64,000 bases of DNA from Escherichia coli. Lineage in GTDB: Bacteria; Pseudomonadota; Gammaproteobacteria; Enterobacterales; Enterobacteriaceae. The position numbers were made by a program, and so were the translations under genes. The notes beneath the pieces are model-generated. The model saw nothing but the letters and a program-made list of their open reading frames with translations, was not told the DNA's origin and searched no databases. Location: assembly GCF_003334335.1 (NCBI RefSeq), contig NZ_QOWQ01000028.1; one strand, written 5' to 3'. This document shows positions 1 through 28,519 of the stretch, piece by piece. The first letter of the stretch is position 1, and the number at the start of each line of letters is the position of its first letter.

Positions 1-210
1 CGTACCATTCAGAACTGGCAGGAACAGGGAATGCCCGTTCTGCGAGGCGGTGGCAAGGGTAATGAGGTGCTTTATGATTCTGCCGCCGTCATAAAATGGT
101 ATGCCGAAAGGGATGCTGAAATTGAGAACGAAAAGCTGCGCCGGGAAGTTGAAGAACTGCGGCAGGCCAGCGAGACAGATCTCCAGCCACCCGCGCTACG
201 GCATGGGTAA
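1..210 (+). pseudogene. nohA: Phage terminase small subunit (lambda Nu1-like) 3' fragment, truncated at both ends; stop at 208-210
   Basis: Frame-1 translation from base 1 reads RTIQNWQEQGMPVLRGGGKGNEVLYDSAAVIKWYAERDAEIENEKLRREVEELRQASE, matching lambda Nu1 as recalled, then diverges and stops; 5' end runs off the window. Confidence 0.75.
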
Positions 211-1468
211 ACGTCTTGGTGCGGCAGATGTGGATAAATGGGCGCTGTATGTCATCGGCCAGTGTTGCGACCAGTCGGTGCCGGACGGTTTTGGCGGCAC
301 GGAGCCGCGCATCACCTGTAATGCCTGGCTGACCACACAGCGTAAGGCGTGGGATGTTCTCAGTGATTTCTGCTCGGCGATGCGCTGTATGCCGGTATGG
401 AACGGGCAGACGCTGACGTTCGTGCAGGACCGACCATCAGATAAGGTGTGGACCTATAACCGCAGTAATGTGGTGATGCCGGATGATGGCGCGCCGTTCC
501 GCTACAGCTTCAGCGCCCTGAAGGACCGCCATAATGCCGTTGAGGTGAACTGGATTGACCCGGATAACGGCTGGGAGACGGCGACAGAGCTTGTGGAGGA
601 CACGCAGGCCATTGCCCGTTACGGTCGTAACGTCACGAAGATGGATGCCTTTGGCTGTACCAGGCGGGGGCAGGCGCACCGAGCCGGGCTGTGGCTGATT
701 AAAACGGAACTGCTGGAAACGCAGACCGTGGACTTCAGCGTGGGTGCCGAAGGGCTTCGCCATGTACCAGGTGATGTCATTGAAATCTGTGATGATGACT
801 ATGCGGGGATCAGCATCGGCGGGCGCGTGCTGGCGGTGAACAGCCAGACGCGGACACTGACGCTCGACCGTGAAATCACGCTGCCATCCTCCGGCACCAC
901 GCTGATAAGCCTGGTTGACGGGCAGGGTAATCCGGTGAGCGTGGAGGTCCAGTCCGTCACCGACGGCGTGAAGGTGAAAGTGAGCCGGGTTCCTGACGGC
1001 GTTGCCGAGTACAGCGTGTGGGGGCTGAAGCTGCCGACGCTGCGTCAGCGCCTGTTCCGCTGTGTGAGTATCCGTGAGAACGATGACGGTACGTATGCCA
1101 TCACTGCCGTGCAGCATGTACCGGAGAAAGAAGCCATCGTGGATAACGGGGCGCACTTTGACGGTGACCAGAGCGGCACGGTGAATGGTGTCACGCCGCC
1201 AGCAGTTCAGCACCTGACCGCAGAAGTCACCGCAGACAGCGGGGAATACCAGGTGCTGGCGCGCTGGGACACGCCGAAGGTGGTGAAGGGGGTGAGCTTT
1301 ATGCTTCGCCTGACCGTGGCAGCGGACGACGGCAGTGAGCGGTTGGTCAGCACGGCCCGGACGACGGAAACCACATATCGCTTCACGCAGCTGGCGCTGG
1401 GAAATTACAGGCTGACAGTCCGGGCGGTAAATGCATGGGGACAGCCGGTGCACATACCCATTCGATGA
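203..1468 (+). pseudogene. stfQ: Lambda J-like host-specificity (central tail fibre) protein internal fragment, no native N- or C-terminus
   Basis: ORF 101..1468: from residue ~35 (GKRLGAADVDKWALYVIGQ...) to ...RAVNAWGQ it follows the lambda J central region as recalled; J homology ends near 1444 and a stop follows 8 codons later; different frame from the upstream nohA remnant. Confidence 0.7.
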
Positions 1469-1743
1469 CATTTGTTTCAGGTGGTTCCAGTGGTGCTCCG
1501 GGAAGTGGATCACCTGATTATTCTAAATACAGTGTTAACACTTCTTCTGCAGGCGCTCATACGCACTCTGTATCGGGTACTGCTGCAAGCGCAGGTGCAC
1601 ACGCACATACTGTCGGTATTGGTGCTCATACGCACTCCGTTGCGATTGGTTCACATGGACATACCATCACCGTTAACGCTGCTGGTAACGCGGAAAACAC
1701 CGTCAAAAACATCGCATTTAACTATATTGTGAGGCTTGCATAA
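1435..1743 (+). CDS. Side tail-fibre C-terminal tip segment with repeated GAHTHS (HxH) motifs; out of frame with the upstream J-like fragment
   Basis: ORF 1435..1743 contains four G-A-H-[TA]-H-[ST] repeats typical of phage tail-fibre tips; its stop overlaps the tfaQ start (TAATG). Confidence 0.55.
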
Positions 1744-2318
1744 TGGCATTCAGAATGAGTGAACAACCACGGACCATAAAAATTTATAATCTGCTGGCCG
1801 GAACTAATGAATTTATTGGTGAAGGTGACGCATATATTCCGCCTCATACAGGTCTGCCAGCAAACAGTACCGATATTGCACCGCCAGATATTCCGGCAGG
1901 CTTCGTGGCTGTTTTCAACAGTGATGAGGCATCGTGGCATCTCGTTGAAGATCATCGGGGTAAAACGGTTTATGACGTGGCTTCCGGCGACGCGTTATTT
2001 ATTTCTGAACTCGGTCCGTTACCGGAAAATGTTACCTGGTTATCGCCGGGAGGGGAATATCAGAAGTGGAACGGCACAGCCTGGGTGAAGGATACGGAAG
2101 CAGAAAAACTGTTCCGGATCCGGGAGGCGGAAGAAACAAAAAACAGCCTGATGCAGATAGCCAGTGAGCATATAGCGCCGCTTCAGGATGCTGTGGATCT
2201 GGAGATCGCAACGGAGGAAGAAACCTTGTTGCTGGAAGCCTGGAAAAAGTATCGGGTGTTGCTGAACCGTGTTGATACATCAACTGCACCGGATATTGAA
2301 TGGCCAGCACTGCCGTAG
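1743..2318 (+). CDS. tfaQ: Prophage tail fibre assembly protein (Tfa family)
   Basis: 191 aa ORF recognised as Tfa-family; immediately follows the tail-fibre tip and is adjacent to an invertase. Confidence 0.85.
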
Positions 2319-2415
2319 GGTAAAACATATAAATTCTATAATTAGATGTATCTCTCCATTTACGGCAAGGAAGGGGGCTTGGAAGACGTAAAGCATCTCA
2401 CACCGAGATTATTTT

Positions 2416-3006
2416 TTATATGTCAGGTGTCTGAAGTTTTGCTTTGGCTCTTAAAATGGTTTGCCGCGAGGTTTTGAATTCCCGGGCAATGGCACTTATA
2501 CTTACACCTGACTTAATTCGTTCGAATACCACCTGTTTCTGTTCTTCATTTAACACAGGTGGTCGACCAAAACGTTTCCCTGCGCCGCGGGCTCTTACTA
2601 TCCCGGAATGAGTGCGTTCAAGTAAAAGGTCTCGTTCAAATTCAGCGACTGCTGAAATTACGTGCATCATCATTTTTCCTGTTGGACTGGTCAGGTCAAT
2701 GCCCCGCAATGCTAAGCAATGCACTCTGATACCTGTTTCGGTCAGTTGTTCCACTGTTTTCCTGATATCCATTGCATTACAACCAAGGCGATCCAGTTTT
2801 GTCACAATCAATTGATCACCACATTTCAGGCGAGCAAGCAACCGGTTAAAACCAGGACGCTCACTGGTTGCTGCTGAGCCGCTAATGTGTTCTTCGATTA
2901 TTTGCTGAGGTTTGATTTTAAAACCTGCACTTTCGATTTCCCGGCGTTGATTTTCGGTGGTCTGATCCAGCGTTGATATCCGACAGTAAGCAAAAATTCG
3001 AGACAT
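2416..3006 (-). CDS. pinQ: Serine-recombinase DNA invertase (Pin/Gin/Hin family)
   Basis: 196 aa ORF with N-terminal resolvase catalytic motif (YCRISTLDQ) and C-terminal HTH; recognised as PinQ. Confidence 0.9.
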
Positions 3007-3322
3007 AGTGAGACTCTATACGAAATTGGTGTTCATATCATAATGCATCTCAGAAAATAATTTTGATTATTTTTGTGCATATTTGTATGTACACGTTCGA
3101 AAATAAACGAATGCGTATGCAACCCCGTAACTTTGGTGAGACCCAAAATCGATTTTGTGAAAAATGGCTTTAACTCGGTTTGTTTTTCGAGTTCCGGGCG
3201 GACTCAAGGAAGAAGAATAGTGTTGCGTGTTATTTTAACCAGATTTCAAGTTGTTTGGTCGTGGAAAAGTGGAGCAAAATGTTGTTAAAGTGGAAAAATG
3301 ATAAAAAAGTAAGTTTATTATA

Positions 3323-3556
3323 TTACATTTTACCATTTAAATTTTGGTTGTCTTTAAGAACTGATATCGCTGTTTGTAATAATTCTTTGTTATCCAGCCA
3401 TGATTTTTTCTTTATGTTTCCTTCAATGTAATCAAGCAATGTTCTGGTATTGATAGGTCTTCCCTGTTTTGCTACTTCCACTACAGCATCCCCTAGGATA
3501 ATTCTGACTTCAGGAAGCTGCGCAGGGAACCACTTTAGGGTGTCTTTTGATTTCAT
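3323..3556 (-). CDS. ydfK: Small prophage-encoded protein YdfK (77 aa)
   Basis: ORF 3323..3589; start placed at the internal Met (MKSKDTLKWF...) preceded by AAGGAA RBS; matches YdfK/YnaE as recalled. Confidence 0.75.
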   Translation of the reverse strand: MKSKDTLKWFPAQLPEVRIILGDAVVEVAKQGRPINTRTLLDYIEGNIKKKSWLDNKELLQTAISVLKDNQNLNGKM

Positions 3557-4341
3557 GAATATATTCCTTAAAATATTATTGATTTTCATTGCGATATTGT
3601 ATGTCTGATTCAGGATATGTTGACTTATACATCGGTTTTGTCTGGGTTATTGGATATGCCAATCCCTAATTTTATTAGAGCATGACTAAAAATGCTGAAT
3701 ATGATAAGGAGCGAAGTGATTATCAGTATGCTGTTCATATAGCCTCGAATTAATAATGTGTTATATATGATATAGTTGACAATTTTTATCCTGGGTGTTC
3801 TTAAAGTTCGTAGATAAACATTGTCGTTTCAGGTATACAGGAATGCTAACAGATGGCGGCAAAAATCAGGCGGTTTATGGCGCAAGCTGAAGTGGCAACT
3901 GCAAACTATCTTATGCAGAGACTCTACACGGATTGGGTTTAAAAGTATACATAGATAACAGTTTTTATCTGAAGAAGAAAAATATCAAGGTGATATAGCC
4001 TATATGCCTTTGATGTGGAGGAATGAATGTGATGGGAGTGATGTATCTGAATAGTTGAAAAACCGCAGACACGCCTTATGCAAGAACGTGCTGCGGTTGG
4101 CTGGTAAATTTTTCGATAGTGCGAGTATTGAATGATTTCCAGCCGTTATTGATTTTACGCGTAACTCCATGAAAAAACTACTTATCTGTTGAGGAGTTTT
4201 TTTGGGGCATATATGGGACAGAAATGGGCCCCAGATAGACACTGAGATCGAACTTAGGATGCTTTTTAAAAAATGCAACTATCTGAAAAAACCTAGAAAA
4301 CGCCAAGGAAACCACAGGATGGGAAAAAACACCTGTGAATT

Positions 4342-5625
4342 ATGGATTTCCAGTTATATTCGCTCGGCGCAGCGTTAGTGTTTCATGAAATATTTTTTCC
4401 TGAATCATCAACGGCAATGGCGTTAATTCTGGCAATGGGAACCTACGGTGCAGGTTATGTGGCGCGTATTGTCGGAGCATTTATTTTCGGCAAAATGGGC
4501 GACAGAATAGGGCGTAAAAAAGTGCTCTTTATTACCATCACCATGATGGGGATCTGTACCACCTTAATTGGTGTGTTACCGACCTATGCACAGATTGGTG
4601 TTTTTGCACCCATCTTGCTGGTGACGTTGCGTATTATTCAGGGGTTGGGTGCAGGTGCGGAAATTTCCGGTGCCGGTACGATGCTGGCGGAATATGCGCC
4701 AAAAGGTAAGCGCGGAATTATCTCCTCATTTGTGGCTATGGGAACTAACTGCGGAACCTTGAGCGCAACGGCAATCTGGGCCTTTATGTTCTTCATTCTC
4801 AGTAAAGAGGAACTGCTGGCGTGGGGATGGCGTATACCGTTCCTGGCGAGTGTTGTCGTGATGGTCTTTGCTATCTGGTTGCGTATGAATCTGAAAGAAA
4901 GCCCGGTCTTTGAGAAGGTTAACGACAGTAACCAACCGACAGCAAAACCTGCACCTGCTGGTAGCATGTTCCAGAGCAAATCCTTCTGGCTGGCAACAGG
5001 GCTGCGTTTTGGTCAGGCGGGTAACTCCGGGTTAATTCAGACTTTCCTTGCAGGCTATTTAGTGCAGACGTTATTGTTTAACAAAGCAATTCCAACAGAT
5101 GCATTGATGATCAGTTCGATTCTCGGCTTTATGACCATTCCGTTCCTTGGTTGGTTATCCGATAAAATTGGTCGCCGGATCCCGTATATTATTATGAATA
5201 CCTCCGCGATTGTGCTGGCATGGCCAATGCTTTCTATCATTGTAGATAAAAGCTATGCCCCGAGCACCATTATGGTTGCACTGATTGTGATTCATAACTG
5301 TGCGGTGCTGGGATTATTTGCTCTGGAAAACATTACCATGGCAGAAATGTTCGGCTGTAAAAACCGCTTTACCCGGATGGCTATTTCTAAAGAAATTGGT
5401 GGTCTTATCGCTTCCGGTTTTGGTCCTATCCTGGCGGGTATTTTCTGCACCATGACGGAATCCTGGTATCCGATCGCCATTATGATCATGGCATATTCAG
5501 TGATTGGTTTAATCTCTGCGCTGAAAATGCCAGAGGTGAAAGACCGTGATTTAAGTGCGCTGGAAGACGCTGCGGAAGATCAACCGCGTGTTGTAAGAGC
5601 TGCGCAACCTTCCAGAAGTCTGTAA
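4342..5625 (+). CDS. ydfJ: MFS-family transporter, probably 5'-truncated at the prophage boundary
   Basis: 427 aa multi-TM ORF with MFS loop motif GKMGDRIGRKK only ~55 residues from the N-terminus, suggesting a missing first helix; followed by an intrinsic terminator. Confidence 0.8.
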   Translation: MDFQLYSLGAALVFHEIFFPESSTAMALILAMGTYGAGYVARIVGAFIFGKMGDRIGRKKVLFITITMMGICTTLIGVLPTYAQIGVFAPILLVTLRIIQGLGAGAEISGAGTMLAEYAPKGKRGIISSFVAMGTNCGTLSATAIWAFMFFILSKEELLAWGWRIPFLASVVVMVFAIWLRMNLKESPVFEKVNDSNQPTAKPAPAGSMFQSKSFWLATGLRFGQAGNSGLIQTFLAGYLVQTLLFNKAIPTDALMISSILGFMTIPFLGWLSDKIGRRIPYIIMNTSAIVLAWPMLSIIVDKSYAPSTIMVALIVIHNCAVLGLFALENITMAEMFGCKNRFTRMAISKEIGGLIASGFGPILAGIFCTMTESWYPIAIMIMAYSVIGLISALKMPEVKDRDLSALEDAAEDQPRVVRAAQPSRSL

Positions 5626-5633
5626 ACCCTTAA

Positions 5634-5663
5634 TCCCTTCTCTTACCGGAGAGGGGATTTTTA
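5634..5663 (+). terminator. Rho-independent terminator after ydfJ
   Basis: 9-bp stem TCCCTTCTC/GAGAGGGGA with one G-U pair, then TTTTT. Confidence 0.6.
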
Positions 5664-5713
5664 TTCATATAACAAAACATATAGCTTGCCATATTTATAT
5701 TTAAGGAATTGTT

Positions 5714-7174
5714 ATGGGAAATAATTTGTTATCAGCAAAAGCGACACTCCCTGTTTATGATCGTAATAACCTGGCTCCAAGAATTGTTCATTTAGGCTTT
5801 GGTGCATTTCACCGTGCGCATCAGGGTGTGTATGCCGATATTCTTGCTACGGAACATTTCAGTGACTGGGGATATTATGAGGTCAACTTAATCGGCGGCG
5901 AACAGCAAATTGCCGATTTACAACAGCAAGATAATCTTTATACCGTTGCGGAAATGTCGGCCGATGTGTGGACGGCTCGCGTCGTTGGCGTCGTTAAAAA
6001 AGCCTTGCACGTACAGATAGATGGCTTAGAAACCGTGTTGGCAGCGATGTGTGAACCGCAAATCGCGATTGTCTCTCTGACAATCACCGAAAAAGGGTAT
6101 TTCCACTCTCCGGCGACCGGACAGTTAATGCTCGATCACCCGATGGTAGCTGCCGACGTGCAAAATCCCCACCAGCCGAAAACAGCAACAGGGGTGATTG
6201 TTGAGGCGCTGGCTCGCCGTAAAGCGGCAGGACTTCCCGCATTTACCGTCATGTCATGTGACAACATGCCAGAAAACGGTCATGTTATGCGTGACGTTGT
6301 CACTTCCTACGCACAAGCCGTTGATGTAAAACTGGCACAATGGATCGAAGATAACGTGACTTTCCCATCAACAATGGTGGACCGTATTGTGCCCGCAGTG
6401 ACAGAGGATACGCTGGCGAAAATCGAACAACTTACCGGTGTGCGCGATCCTGCGGGCGTTGCCTGTGAACCTTTCCGCCAGTGGGTAATAGAAGATAACT
6501 TTGTTGCCGGACGTCCGGAATGGGAAAAAGCGGGAGCCGAACTGGTTAGCGATGTGCTGCCTTATGAAGAGATGAAGTTGCGCATGCTCAACGGCAGTCA
6601 TTCATTCCTGGCGTATCTGGGGTATCTTGCAGGATATCAGCACATTAATGACTGTATGGAAGATGAACATTATCGTTATGCGGCGTATGGCTTGATGTTG
6701 CAGGAACAAGCGCCGACGTTGAAAGTGCAGGGCGTTGATTTGCAAGATTACGCTAACCGATTAATTGCACGCTATAGCAACCCGGCGTTACGTCATCGAA
6801 CCTGGCAGATTGCGATGGATGGTAGCCAGAAATTGCCACAGCGGATGTTGGATTCTGTTCGCTGGCATCTGGCGCATGACAGCAAGTTCGATCTGCTGGC
6901 GCTGGGCGTCGCGGGTTGGATGCGTTATGTCGGTGGTGTTGATGAACAGGGAAATCCGATAGAAATCAGTGACCCACTGTTACCTGTTATTCAGAAGGCT
7001 GTACAAAGTAGTGCCGAAGGGAAAGCGCGCGTCCAGTCATTGCTGGCGATTAAGGCGATCTTTGGTGATGATTTGCCAGACAATAGTTTGTTTACTGCAA
7101 GAGTGACGGAAACGTACTTGTCTTTATTAGCGCATGGCGCGAAAGCGACCGTGGCAAAATATTCCGTGAAGTAA
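5714..7174 (+). CDS. ydfI: Mannitol dehydrogenase family oxidoreductase (mannonate/altronate oxidoreductase-like)
   Basis: 486 aa ORF; N-terminal Rossmann-type motif ([13 protein letters not shown]); recognised as YdfI. Confidence 0.85.
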
Positions 7175-7201
7175 AAAAGCAATGCCGCCATCGGCGGCAT
7201 T
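7172..7201 (-). terminator. Hairpin terminator serving ydfZ (minus strand), shared with the ydfI 3' end
   Basis: Stem AATGCCGCC/GGCGGCATT with loop ATCG; T-run on the minus strand. Confidence 0.55.
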
Positions 7202-25946: not shown

Positions 25947-27398
25947 GTGAAAACACTAAATCGTCGCGATTTTCCCGGTGCACAGTATCCAGAACGTATC
26001 ATTCAGTTTGGTGAAGGTAACTTCCTGCGCGCCTTTGTTGACTGGCAAATCGATCTCCTGAATGAGCACACCGATCTGAATTCTGGCGTGGTCGTTGTTC
26101 GTCCGATTGAAACTTCATTCCCGCCGTCACTGAGCACGCAGGATGGTCTGTACACCACCATTATCCGTGGCCTGAATGAGAAGGGGGAAGCGGTCAGCGA
26201 CGCGCGTCTGATTCGCTCGGTTAATCGTGAAATCAGCGTCTACAGTGAATACGATGAATTCCTGAAACTGGCGCACAACCCGGAAATGCGCTTTGTTTTC
26301 TCTAACACCACCGAAGCGGGTATCAGCTACCATGCGGGCGATAAATTCGATGACGCGCCAGCGGTAAGCTATCCGGCAAAACTGACCCGTCTGCTGTTCG
26401 AACGCTTTAGCCATTTCAACGGTGCGCTGGATAAAGGTTGGATCATCATTCCGTGTGAGTTGATTGACTACAATGGCGACGCGTTGCGTGAACTGGTGCT
26501 GCGCTATGCGCAAGAGTGGGCACTGCCAGAAGCATTTATTCAATGGCTGGATCAGGCTAACAGCTTCTGTTCTACGCTGGTGGACCGTATCGTTACCGGT
26601 TATCCGCGCGATGAAGTGGCTAAACTGGAAGAAGAACTGGGTTATCACGATGGTTTTCTCGACACCGCTGAACACTTTTACCTGTTTGTGATTCAGGGAC
26701 CGAAATCCTTAGCGACTGAACTGCGTCTGGACAAATATCCGCTCAACGTGCTGATTGTTGACGATATTAAACCGTACAAAGAACGCAAAGTGGCAATCCT
26801 CAACGGTGCGCACACCGCGCTGGTGCCGGTGGCGTTCCAGGCAGGGCTGGATACCGTAGGTGAAGCGATGAACGATGCTGAAATTTGCGCATTCGTTGAA
26901 AAAGCTATCTACGAAGAAATTATTCCGGTACTGGATTTGCCTCGTGATGAACTGGAATCTTTCGCCAGTGCAGTCACCGGGCGTTTCCGTAACCCGTACA
27001 TTAAGCATCAGCTGCTGTCTATCGCGCTCAACGGTATGACCAAGTTCCGCACCCGCATCCTGCCACAGCTGCTGGCAGGGCAGAAGGCAAACGGCACACT
27101 TCCGGCGCGCCTTACTTTCGCATTAGCGGCATTGATTGCGTTCTATCGTGGTGAGCGTAACGGCGAAACATATCCGGTACAGGACGATGCACACTGGCTG
27201 GAACGTTATCAGCAACTCTGGAGCCAGCATCGTGACCGTGTTATCGGCACCCAGGAACTGGTAGCGATTGTTTTGGCAGAAAAAGACCACTGGGAGCAGG
27301 ACCTGACGCAAGTGCCTGGTCTGGTCGAGCAGGTTGCTAATGACCTGGATGCGATTCTCGAAAAAGGGATGCGCGAAGCTGTACGTCCGTTGTGCTAA
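25947..27398 (+). CDS. uxaB: Altronate oxidoreductase (tagaturonate reductase)
   Basis: 483 aa mannitol-dehydrogenase-family ORF; recognised as UxaB. Confidence 0.9.
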
Positions 27399-27415
27399 TA
27401 ACACCGTTACTTCTG

Positions 27416-27443
27416 AACCCGGTTTCGACCGGGTTTCTTATTT
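27416..27443 (+). terminator. Rho-independent terminator after uxaB
   Basis: Stem AACCCGGT/ACCGGGTT then TTCTTATTT. Confidence 0.6.
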
Positions 27444-27604
27444 CACCATATTAGTTACAACATCCTATATGCCTTTATCATTAACAGGTGCCACATGCAG
27501 CGCCTGCTAATGTTGTAAGCTTGTAGGTAATTTGTAAGTAGCGTCTTGAGAATGTGATCTTAATCACGTTTAATAGGGCGACTTTTCCACGCCTGAAGAT
27601 AACC

Positions 27605-28519
27605 ATGATTGTTCGTCCACAACAACACTGGCTGCGCCGTATTTTTGTCTGGCACGGCTCAGTATTATCCAAGATATCCTCGCGCTTACTACTCAATTTT
27701 CTCTTTTCTATCGCTGTTATTTTCATGCTGCCCTGGTACACGCATCTGGGCATCAAATTCACCCTCGCACCGTTCAGCATTCTCGGTGTCGCCATCGCCA
27801 TTTTTCTTGGTTTTCGTAATAATGCCGGGTACGCCCGTTACGTTGAAGCGCGAAAACTTTGGGGGCAGTTGATGATTGCCTCACGGTCGTTACTGCGCGA
27901 GGTAAAAACGACATTGCCGGATTCGGCAAGTGTAAGGGAGTTTGCCCGGCTGCAAATCGCTTTCGCCCACTGTTTACGCATGACATTACGCAAACAGCCA
28001 CAGGCGGAAGTGCTGGCTCATTATCTCAAGACTGAAGATCTTCAGCGTGTACTGGCTTCGAACTCTCCAGCTAACCGTATCTTGTTAATAATGGGAGAAT
28101 GGTTGGCGGTTCAGCGCCGCAATGGACAGCTTTCAGATATCCTGTTTATTAGCCTCAACGATCGGCTTAATGATATTTCAGCGGTCCTGGCAGGATGCGA
28201 GCGCATTGCCTATACGCCAATTCCCTTTGCCTACACCCTGATTTTGCATCGTACCGTTTATCTGTTTTGTATCATGCTGCCGTTCGCGCTGGTCGTGGAC
28301 CTGCATTACATGACGCCTTTTATCTCTGTGCTGATTTCCTACACTTTTATTTCGCTGGATTGTCTGGCGGAAGAACTGGAAGATCCGTTCGGTACTGAAA
28401 ACAATGATTTACCACTGGATGCCATCTGCAACGCTATTGAAATTGACCTGTTACAGATGAACGATGAAGCCGAAATTCCAGCAAAAATTCTTCCCGATCG
28501 TCATTACCAGCTGACGTGA
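27605..28519 (+). CDS. yneE: Bestrophin-family membrane protein
   Basis: ORF 27554..28519; start placed at MIVRPQQHW, giving 304 aa; recognised as YneE. Confidence 0.75.
   Translation: MIVRPQQHWLRRIFVWHGSVLSKISSRLLLNFLFSIAVIFMLPWYTHLGIKFTLAPFSILGVAIAIFLGFRNNAGYARYVEARKLWGQLMIASRSLLREVKTTLPDSASVREFARLQIAFAHCLRMTLRKQPQAEVLAHYLKTEDLQRVLASNSPANRILLIMGEWLAVQRRNGQLSDILFISLNDRLNDISAVLAGCERIAYTPIPFAYTLILHRTVYLFCIMLPFALVVDLHYMTPFISVLISYTFISLDCLAEELEDPFGTENNDLPLDAICNAIEIDLLQMNDEAEIPAKILPDRHYQLT

Follow-up and report, generated by a model that had tools for sequence, protein, structure and literature searches.

The attR junction of a Qin-type prophage in the transporter gene ydfJ of an Escherichia coli chromosome

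Genes and features between ydfK and ydfI

The window—that is, the whole stretch of 64,000 nucleotides that was analysed—belongs to an E. coli host, and a sequence comparison of its positions 3300–5700 gave 100% identity to the E. coli strain GDSC2BY4G, in whose RefSeq annotation the genes follow one another in the order tfaQ, pinQ, ydfK, ynfT, ydfJ, ydfI, ydfZ, and rspR. The same 2.4-kb region is 99.1% identical to the K-12-derived laboratory strains and runs in the orientation opposite to that of MG1655. The phage cargo gene ydfK (3323–3556, minus strand), annotated in the RefSeq entry of GDSC2BY4G as the cold shock protein YdfK and matching phrog_2718 at 160 bits, terminates on its start-codon side exactly at position 3556, about where an earlier note on this DNA, made from the letters alone, had placed the end of the last prophage-type gene; and this gene occupies the same position in the free phages mEp460 and HannyBb. 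The next large open reading frame begins at 4342, so that 785 bp lie between the two, and corresponds to ydfJ' (4342–5625, plus strand), which comprises the 3' 427 codons of the 455-codon gene of an MFS transporter of the MHS family, as deduced from a 455-aa orthologue and from the PGAP label "incomplete; missing N-terminus." Beyond that remnant lies ydfI (5714–7174, plus strand), a gene of the mannitol dehydrogenase family recognized through the annotation and by comparing how the genes are ordered at occupied and at empty loci. The comparison of those loci further indicated that rspA, rspB, ydfJ, and ydfI form a cluster that is split by the prophage, with ydfI being its downstream member.

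On the far side of ydfK, within positions 1–2320 of the window (locus 44786–46576 in GDSC2BY4G), a truncated small-terminase gene abuts a fragment of the gene for the tail-tip protein TipJ along with a tail-fibre fragment. The prophage is internally collapsed, with its morphogenesis genes almost all deleted.

Phage DNA between ydfK and the attachment core

The interval following ydfK had been described in the earlier note as about 780 bp of AT-rich sequence with no convincing gene. The length and the composition were as stated—785 bp, with a GC content over 200-bp windows of 0.325–0.405, compared with about 0.43–0.51 inside ydfJ—but the interval is not devoid of genes, in that it contains ynfT (3625–3738, minus strand), which encodes a small hydrophobic protein, 37 aa long, belonging to the YnaM/YnfT family, is annotated by RefSeq and in MG1655 (b4748), and matches both the NCBIfam model NF041477 (63.9 bits for a cutoff of 35) and phrog_35882. 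Two other open reading frames, one at 4202–4378 (plus strand, 58 aa) and the other at 4000–4278 (minus strand, 92 aa), were set aside as having neither a RefSeq annotation nor independent support. An Rfam scan of positions 2900–4600 returned sub-threshold matches only, those to mir-263, 7SK, and NsiR4 being at chance level.

The DNA from the last large phage gene to the attachment core (3557–4339, without assigned strand) was identified by its identity to the free temperate lambdoid phages HannyBb, Tritos, and mEp460, which identity ranged from 97.6 to 99.6% over positions 3557–4055 and from 97.8 to 99.4% over positions 4040–4350. Judged by these alignments, all of 3557–4350 is phage DNA, with no neutral spacer in it. 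The different portions of this DNA have different distributions. Some other prophages integrated in ydfJ have in common with the window only the left flank up to the core, from 4056 or 4077 to 4336; and the block from 3300 to about 4159—containing ydfK, ynfT, and the hairpin described below—recurs with 93.5% identity in a prfC-adjacent prophage of the strain 729_021014_1_4 (locus 2001–2859), while those genomes that match a query consisting of the ydfK–ynfT–hairpin block mostly contain two matching places (median 2). Because the sharing of the flank varies among prophages and the block recurs at prfC, we delimited the P arm to positions from about 4160 to 4339 and considered the rest to be cargo. 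On these comparisons, the ydfK–ynfT–hairpin block, which within the gap extends from 3557 to about 4159, acts as a mobile module of cargo whose occurrence does not depend on the integration specificity, and the segment at about 4160–4339 is, by the same token, the integrase-specific P arm. In an EHEC-type prophage present at the same attachment site in the strain 99_0849, a DinI-like gene (locus 2588–2830) is inserted at about the equivalent of window position 4188, within the stretch that separates the hairpin from the P arm, and the type III effector gene nleC (locus 1231–2217) is located just upstream.

Inside the P arm, a tandem of TGGGGCA and TGGGACA spaced 11 bp apart (4203–4220, plus strand) was singled out, by motif count and by conservation, as a candidate for arm-type integrase sites. 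In the 5.3-kb locus of mEp460 the motif TGGGRCA has only four matches, all of them in one orientation and distributed as two tandem pairs with the same 11-bp spacing, one pair in each arm (2665–2682 and 2872–2889), for an expectation of about 0.08 matches in 450 bp; and the pair at 4203–4220 is invariant across three prophage types. These pairs are probably the arm-type sites of the integrase that carries the PF12167 domain.

A second conserved element of the interval is a stem-loop at 4061–4098 (minus strand), recognized by folding and conservation, which has a free energy of −20.7 kcal/mol (z = −4.0, with 0 of 200 shuffled sequences being as stable) and is followed on the minus strand by UUUUU. 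Compensatory changes in the two strands of the stem preserve the pairing in three prophage types integrated at ydfJ, and the hairpin is also found in prophages with other integration sites. In the circular phage mEp460 the hairpin is situated on the int strand, about 290–330 nt downstream of the int stop codon, a position that would make of it a terminator-like element downstream of int, analogous in location to tI/sib of lambda. In lambda, too, a hairpin with a T-run occurs on the int strand beyond the core, at about 150–190 bp compared with about 240–280 bp in the window; however, an alignment of the P arm and sib of lambda with the window arm revealed no detectable sequence similarity. Moreover, the U-run is absent from the arm of the ZF8-1-type prophage, which absence weakens the terminator reading. 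A simple terminator scan found nothing at this hairpin because of its bulge and long loop, while direct folding exhibits it. The region also gave 28.7 bits with the Rfam model of CssrB (RF02799), for which the gathering score is 76, and the similarity was concentrated in the 3' hairpin, mainly at 4061–4098; since the score is below the gathering threshold and the signal rests mainly on the hairpin, we discarded an identification of the region as the CssrB sRNA. CssrB, which is a Shigella sRNA, may itself derive from a prophage-end hairpin of this kind.

The attachment core and the displaced start of ydfJ

To locate the junction between the phage and the host DNA, we compared the four attachment sites: attP from mEp460 and HannyBb, attB from the prophage-free strain AVS0467, attL from GDSC2BY4G, and attR as present in the window. 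All four have in common an 11-bp identity, TTATGGATTTC, which constitutes the att core or overlap region, covers codons 28–31 of ydfJ, and is located at positions 4340–4350 of the window (without assigned strand), at about 26735–26745 of the attL locus of GDSC2BY4G, and at about 4006–4016 of the attB locus of AVS0467. The attP sequence reads ...cacctgtgaat TATGGATTTC aagagtc..., and that of attB ...gcgcttgaatt TATGGATTTC cagttat...; the window joins the left side of attP to the right side of attB, and attL the left side of attB to the right side of attP, so that on paper a recombination between attL and attR yields exactly attB and attP with nothing being lost. The unoccupied site of other strains is likewise the exact join of both host flanks, and in an alignment with such empty-site strains the identity of the window begins only at the core, the parts upstream being unrelated. 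In MG1655 the annotated feature of the cryptic prophage Qin ends at the position equivalent to 4350 of the window. The prophage–host boundary that the earlier note had expected somewhere within 3557–4420 therefore lies at 4340–4350.

The alignment with prophage-free orthologues that had been proposed as a check was also performed. In AVS0467 and in 17-07187, both free of the prophage, ydfJ has 1368 nt (455 aa) and is separated by a 57-bp spacer from the preceding rspA–rspB. The intact protein begins with MTIEKHERSTKDLVKAAVSGWLGTALEF and continues with MDFQLYSL, the very residues with which the open reading frame of the window begins; accordingly, the gene of the window lacks the first 28 codons—a figure just under the 30–40 of the earlier note—and starts at Met29 of the intact gene, the orthologues from unoccupied sites thus having an N-terminus that the window does not have. 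The loop motif GKMGDRIGRK, which had been noticed about 55 residues into the protein, is indeed at residues 50–59, and at 78–87 in the intact protein. With the model TIGR00883 (metabolite/H+ symporter; cutoff, 443.45 bits), the open reading frame of the window scored 453.5 bits over profile positions 7–400 and the intact protein 462.9 bits over positions 1–400, and the alignment with the ShiA model began at position 37 in the window protein and at position 12 in the intact one. As far as those profiles allow us to judge, the YdfJ of the window is a member of the MHS family by descent, though an incomplete one.

These same data bear on the possibility that the 455-aa form is simply an over-extended gene call and that Met29 is the native start in every strain, a proposal for which we found no support. 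Upstream from Met29 the sequence of the empty site is unrelated to that of the window, which argues against a single locus having been called in two different ways, and the additional residues of the longer form align to the MHS profiles, from position 12 in the instance of ShiA and from profile position 1 in that of TIGR00883. The over-extended call is thereby refuted, and we accord it practically no probability.

The 84 nt missing from the window were found intact in GDSC2BY4G at attL, about 22.5 kb away, where they stand directly after rspB, with 37 bp separating them from the integrase stop codon. The int end is outside the window. The excisionase gene follows the integrase gene at that attL; and the integrase, which belongs to phrog_1, contains both the catalytic domain of the tyrosine recombinases (PF00589, 8.4e-18) and the arm DNA-binding domain (PF12167, 8.5e-22), while the xis product matches phrog_539. 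In mEp460 and HannyBb, attP runs without interruption from the P arm of the window through the core into the P' arm, and on to int and xis. The 5' fragment of ydfJ at attL runs on into phage sequence and stops after 36 codons, and is equal to the ynfP of MG1655, a strain in which the 84 nt likewise adjoin the integrase gene at the other prophage end and whose annotation lists, together with the Qin prophage, a ydfJ of 427 aa and ynfP as its N-terminal fragment. In the window, direct reading of the sequence locates a phage-derived TGA (4336–4338, plus strand) in the frame of ydfJ and one codon before the ATG, because of which stop codon the phage supplies no N-terminal extension to the protein.

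The short N-terminus might, as another possibility, have arisen through a deletion or some other rearrangement bordering a prophage that had integrated nearby and not through an insertion into ydfJ itself, for which scenario one might invoke the heavy internal rearrangement of this Qin copy, with its truncated genes for the terminase, the tail tip, and the tail fibre. Against that scenario, the missing 84 nt are preserved at attL and the attachment sites rejoin without loss, such that the four-way comparison refutes it; this explanation, too, we regard as having next to no chance of being correct. Rather, the supposition of the earlier note that the integration of the prophage had removed the 5' end of the transporter gene is sustained by the recovery of that end at attL and by the presence of the core in all four attachment sites.

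We therefore consider it close to certain that positions 3557–4350 constitute the right end, attR (P-O-B'), of a lambdoid prophage of the Qin type integrated in ydfJ. By this account, the prophage entered the 5' portion of the ydfJ gene of the chromosome through site-specific recombination by a tyrosine integrase, with the strand exchange occurring inside the 11-bp core at codons 28–31 and the gene being cut between codons 28 and 29. The integration carried the ydfJ promoter region—with rspA–rspB upstream—the start codon, and the first 28 codons about 22.5 kb off to attL, where the displaced 5' end forms the 36-codon open reading frame ynfP, while the window side retains the 427-codon remnant from the internal Met29, behind the phage TGA. 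As read from the four sites, the integration is complete and loss-free. The checks made on this model—the core at the other end, the start of ydfJ in prophage-free strains, and the contiguity of attP in free phages—were all favourable, and no contradiction was found among them.

The closest known counterpart is the Qin (Kim) prophage of K-12, which has the same insertion site, the same core, and the same order ydfK–ynfT–attR–ydfJ–ydfI as does the window, along with a 427-codon ydfJ remnant that is identical in nucleotide sequence; the two differ in the divergence over the 2.4 kb given above and in the int and xis genes, which are intact in GDSC2BY4G, whereas intQ is a pseudogene beside an IS2 in K-12. 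The phages mEp460, HannyBb, and Tritos are live counterparts of the prophage end of the window, with which they share the arrangement tfa–pin–ydfK–(ynfT)–P arm–core–P' arm–int–xis and an identity of 97.6–99.6% over 3557–4350, but they are complete phage genomes of 45–46 kb as opposed to the degraded prophage present here. The organization also resembles that of attP in lambda, in that int reads toward the core and the far-side arm bears Int arm sites, for which the window has candidates. The attB of lambda lies between gal and bio, whereas the site used by this prophage is inside a gene. In the latter respect, Rac, in ttcA, and e14, in icd, are comparable examples of a site-specific insertion by a tyrosine integrase into a coding sequence. 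Integration of e14 at the 3' end of icd results in a duplicate of 163 bp, a pseudo icd' fragment, Rac at the 5' end of ttcA alters the N-terminus of TtcA, and Qin at the 5' end of ydfJ results in the loss of the promoter and of 28 N-terminal codons (PMC6379469, a 2019 review). In contrast to Rac and e14, the phage of the window contributes a stop codon in the frame of ydfJ without supplying a new 5' end, and the gene is thereby truncated.

The truncated transporter gene and the distribution of the junction

We determined the frequency of the two states of the site over 5426 complete E. coli genomes. The uninterrupted 301-bp rspB–ydfJ junction, indicative of an intact ydfJ, was present in 2009 of them (37%), and the attR junction as it appears in the window in 3169 (58%), with a subset of 1987 of the latter genomes having the full ydfK–ynfT–attR arrangement. 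Data from the literature, for their part, give ydfJ as the insertion site of Qin for the strains W, K-12, B, and Crooks (PMC3032704).

We infer that the remnant ydfJ' is non-functional. A scan of positions 3600–4340 detected no promoter-like site on the plus strand, and the remnant has no recognizable Shine–Dalgarno sequence and is directly preceded by the in-frame TGA. The cut, at LEF|MDF, lies within the conserved N-terminal block that opens the MHS profile, and would by that position be inside the first transmembrane helix. A single-sequence AlphaFold2 model of the intact YdfJ was too poor to place that helix (mean pLDDT, 41), a Kyte–Doolittle scan of the N-terminus did not make it stand out, and a PDB sequence search returned no solved homologue of YdfJ at E ≤ 1e-10.

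An opposite proposal would have the 427-aa remnant alive: transcribed from within the phage arm or through it, translated from Met29 or a later Met, and working as a transporter or in some other manner. The remnant is an open reading frame in 10 of the 10 truncated alleles examined, with few non-synonymous changes (dN/dS 0–0.06), and its score with TIGR00883, as stated, exceeds the cutoff of that model; furthermore, the RefSeq entry of MG1655 retains ydfJ as a CDS, "putative transporter YdfJ," with no pseudogene label, and a preprint lists the gene among those differentially expressed after DicC induction, so that some transcript exists. Opposed to those arguments are the features of the junction just enumerated, the PGAP label of incompleteness, and the condition of the neighbouring ydfI, which is broken in two occupied strains, in one by an internal stop (locus 3914–5374) and in the other by an IS1 insertion (locus 3919–6156). 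The breakage of ydfI, though anecdotal, is consistent with the decay of a split cluster. With respect to the low dN/dS, we noted that among Qin-bearing strains the mostly non-coding phage end (3300–4341) differs by at most 2.1%, whereas the synonymous sites of ydfJ' differ by up to 11%. Since divergence is several-fold lower in the phage end than at those synonymous sites, that of ydfJ mostly predates the present association between prophage and host, and the low dN/dS is consequently uninformative as a sign of continued selection on ydfJ'. The same contrast in divergence implies a repeated acquisition or a recombinational spread of the prophage end, and not one ancient insertion. On balance, we deem it improbable that the remnant is alive, and favour the non-functional reading.

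A broader alternative would regard the occupied site as more than a dead end, either because the Met29 remnant is made and functional or because an excision mediated by int and xis rebuilds the 455-codon ydfJ joined to rspAB; this possibility we consider somewhat more doubtful still. Excision that restores ydfJ may still be possible in strains with both int and xis, such as GDSC2BY4G. The degraded prophage of this strain retains full-length integrase and excisionase genes (locus 26783–28349), as distinct from the intQ pseudogene of K-12. In E. coli CFT073 the cluster has reportedly been associated with the catabolism of L-gulonate; and should the excision version be true, the prophage would constitute a reversible switch on a sugar-acid utilization cluster.

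The junction described here is real, ordinary, and already published. What the present analysis adds are the exact core, the confirmation of attP in free phages, the candidate arm sites, the tI-like hairpin, and the frequencies, which additions are refinements of a textbook case and have little import beyond a correct annotation. Within those bounds, the junction explains why ydfJ receives a label of incompleteness from automatic pipelines and why the gene is N-terminally short in K-12-like strains, as well as why rspAB and the repressor gene rspR, parted from that target by Qin, are about 26 kb away from each other in K-12 (PMC8249747).
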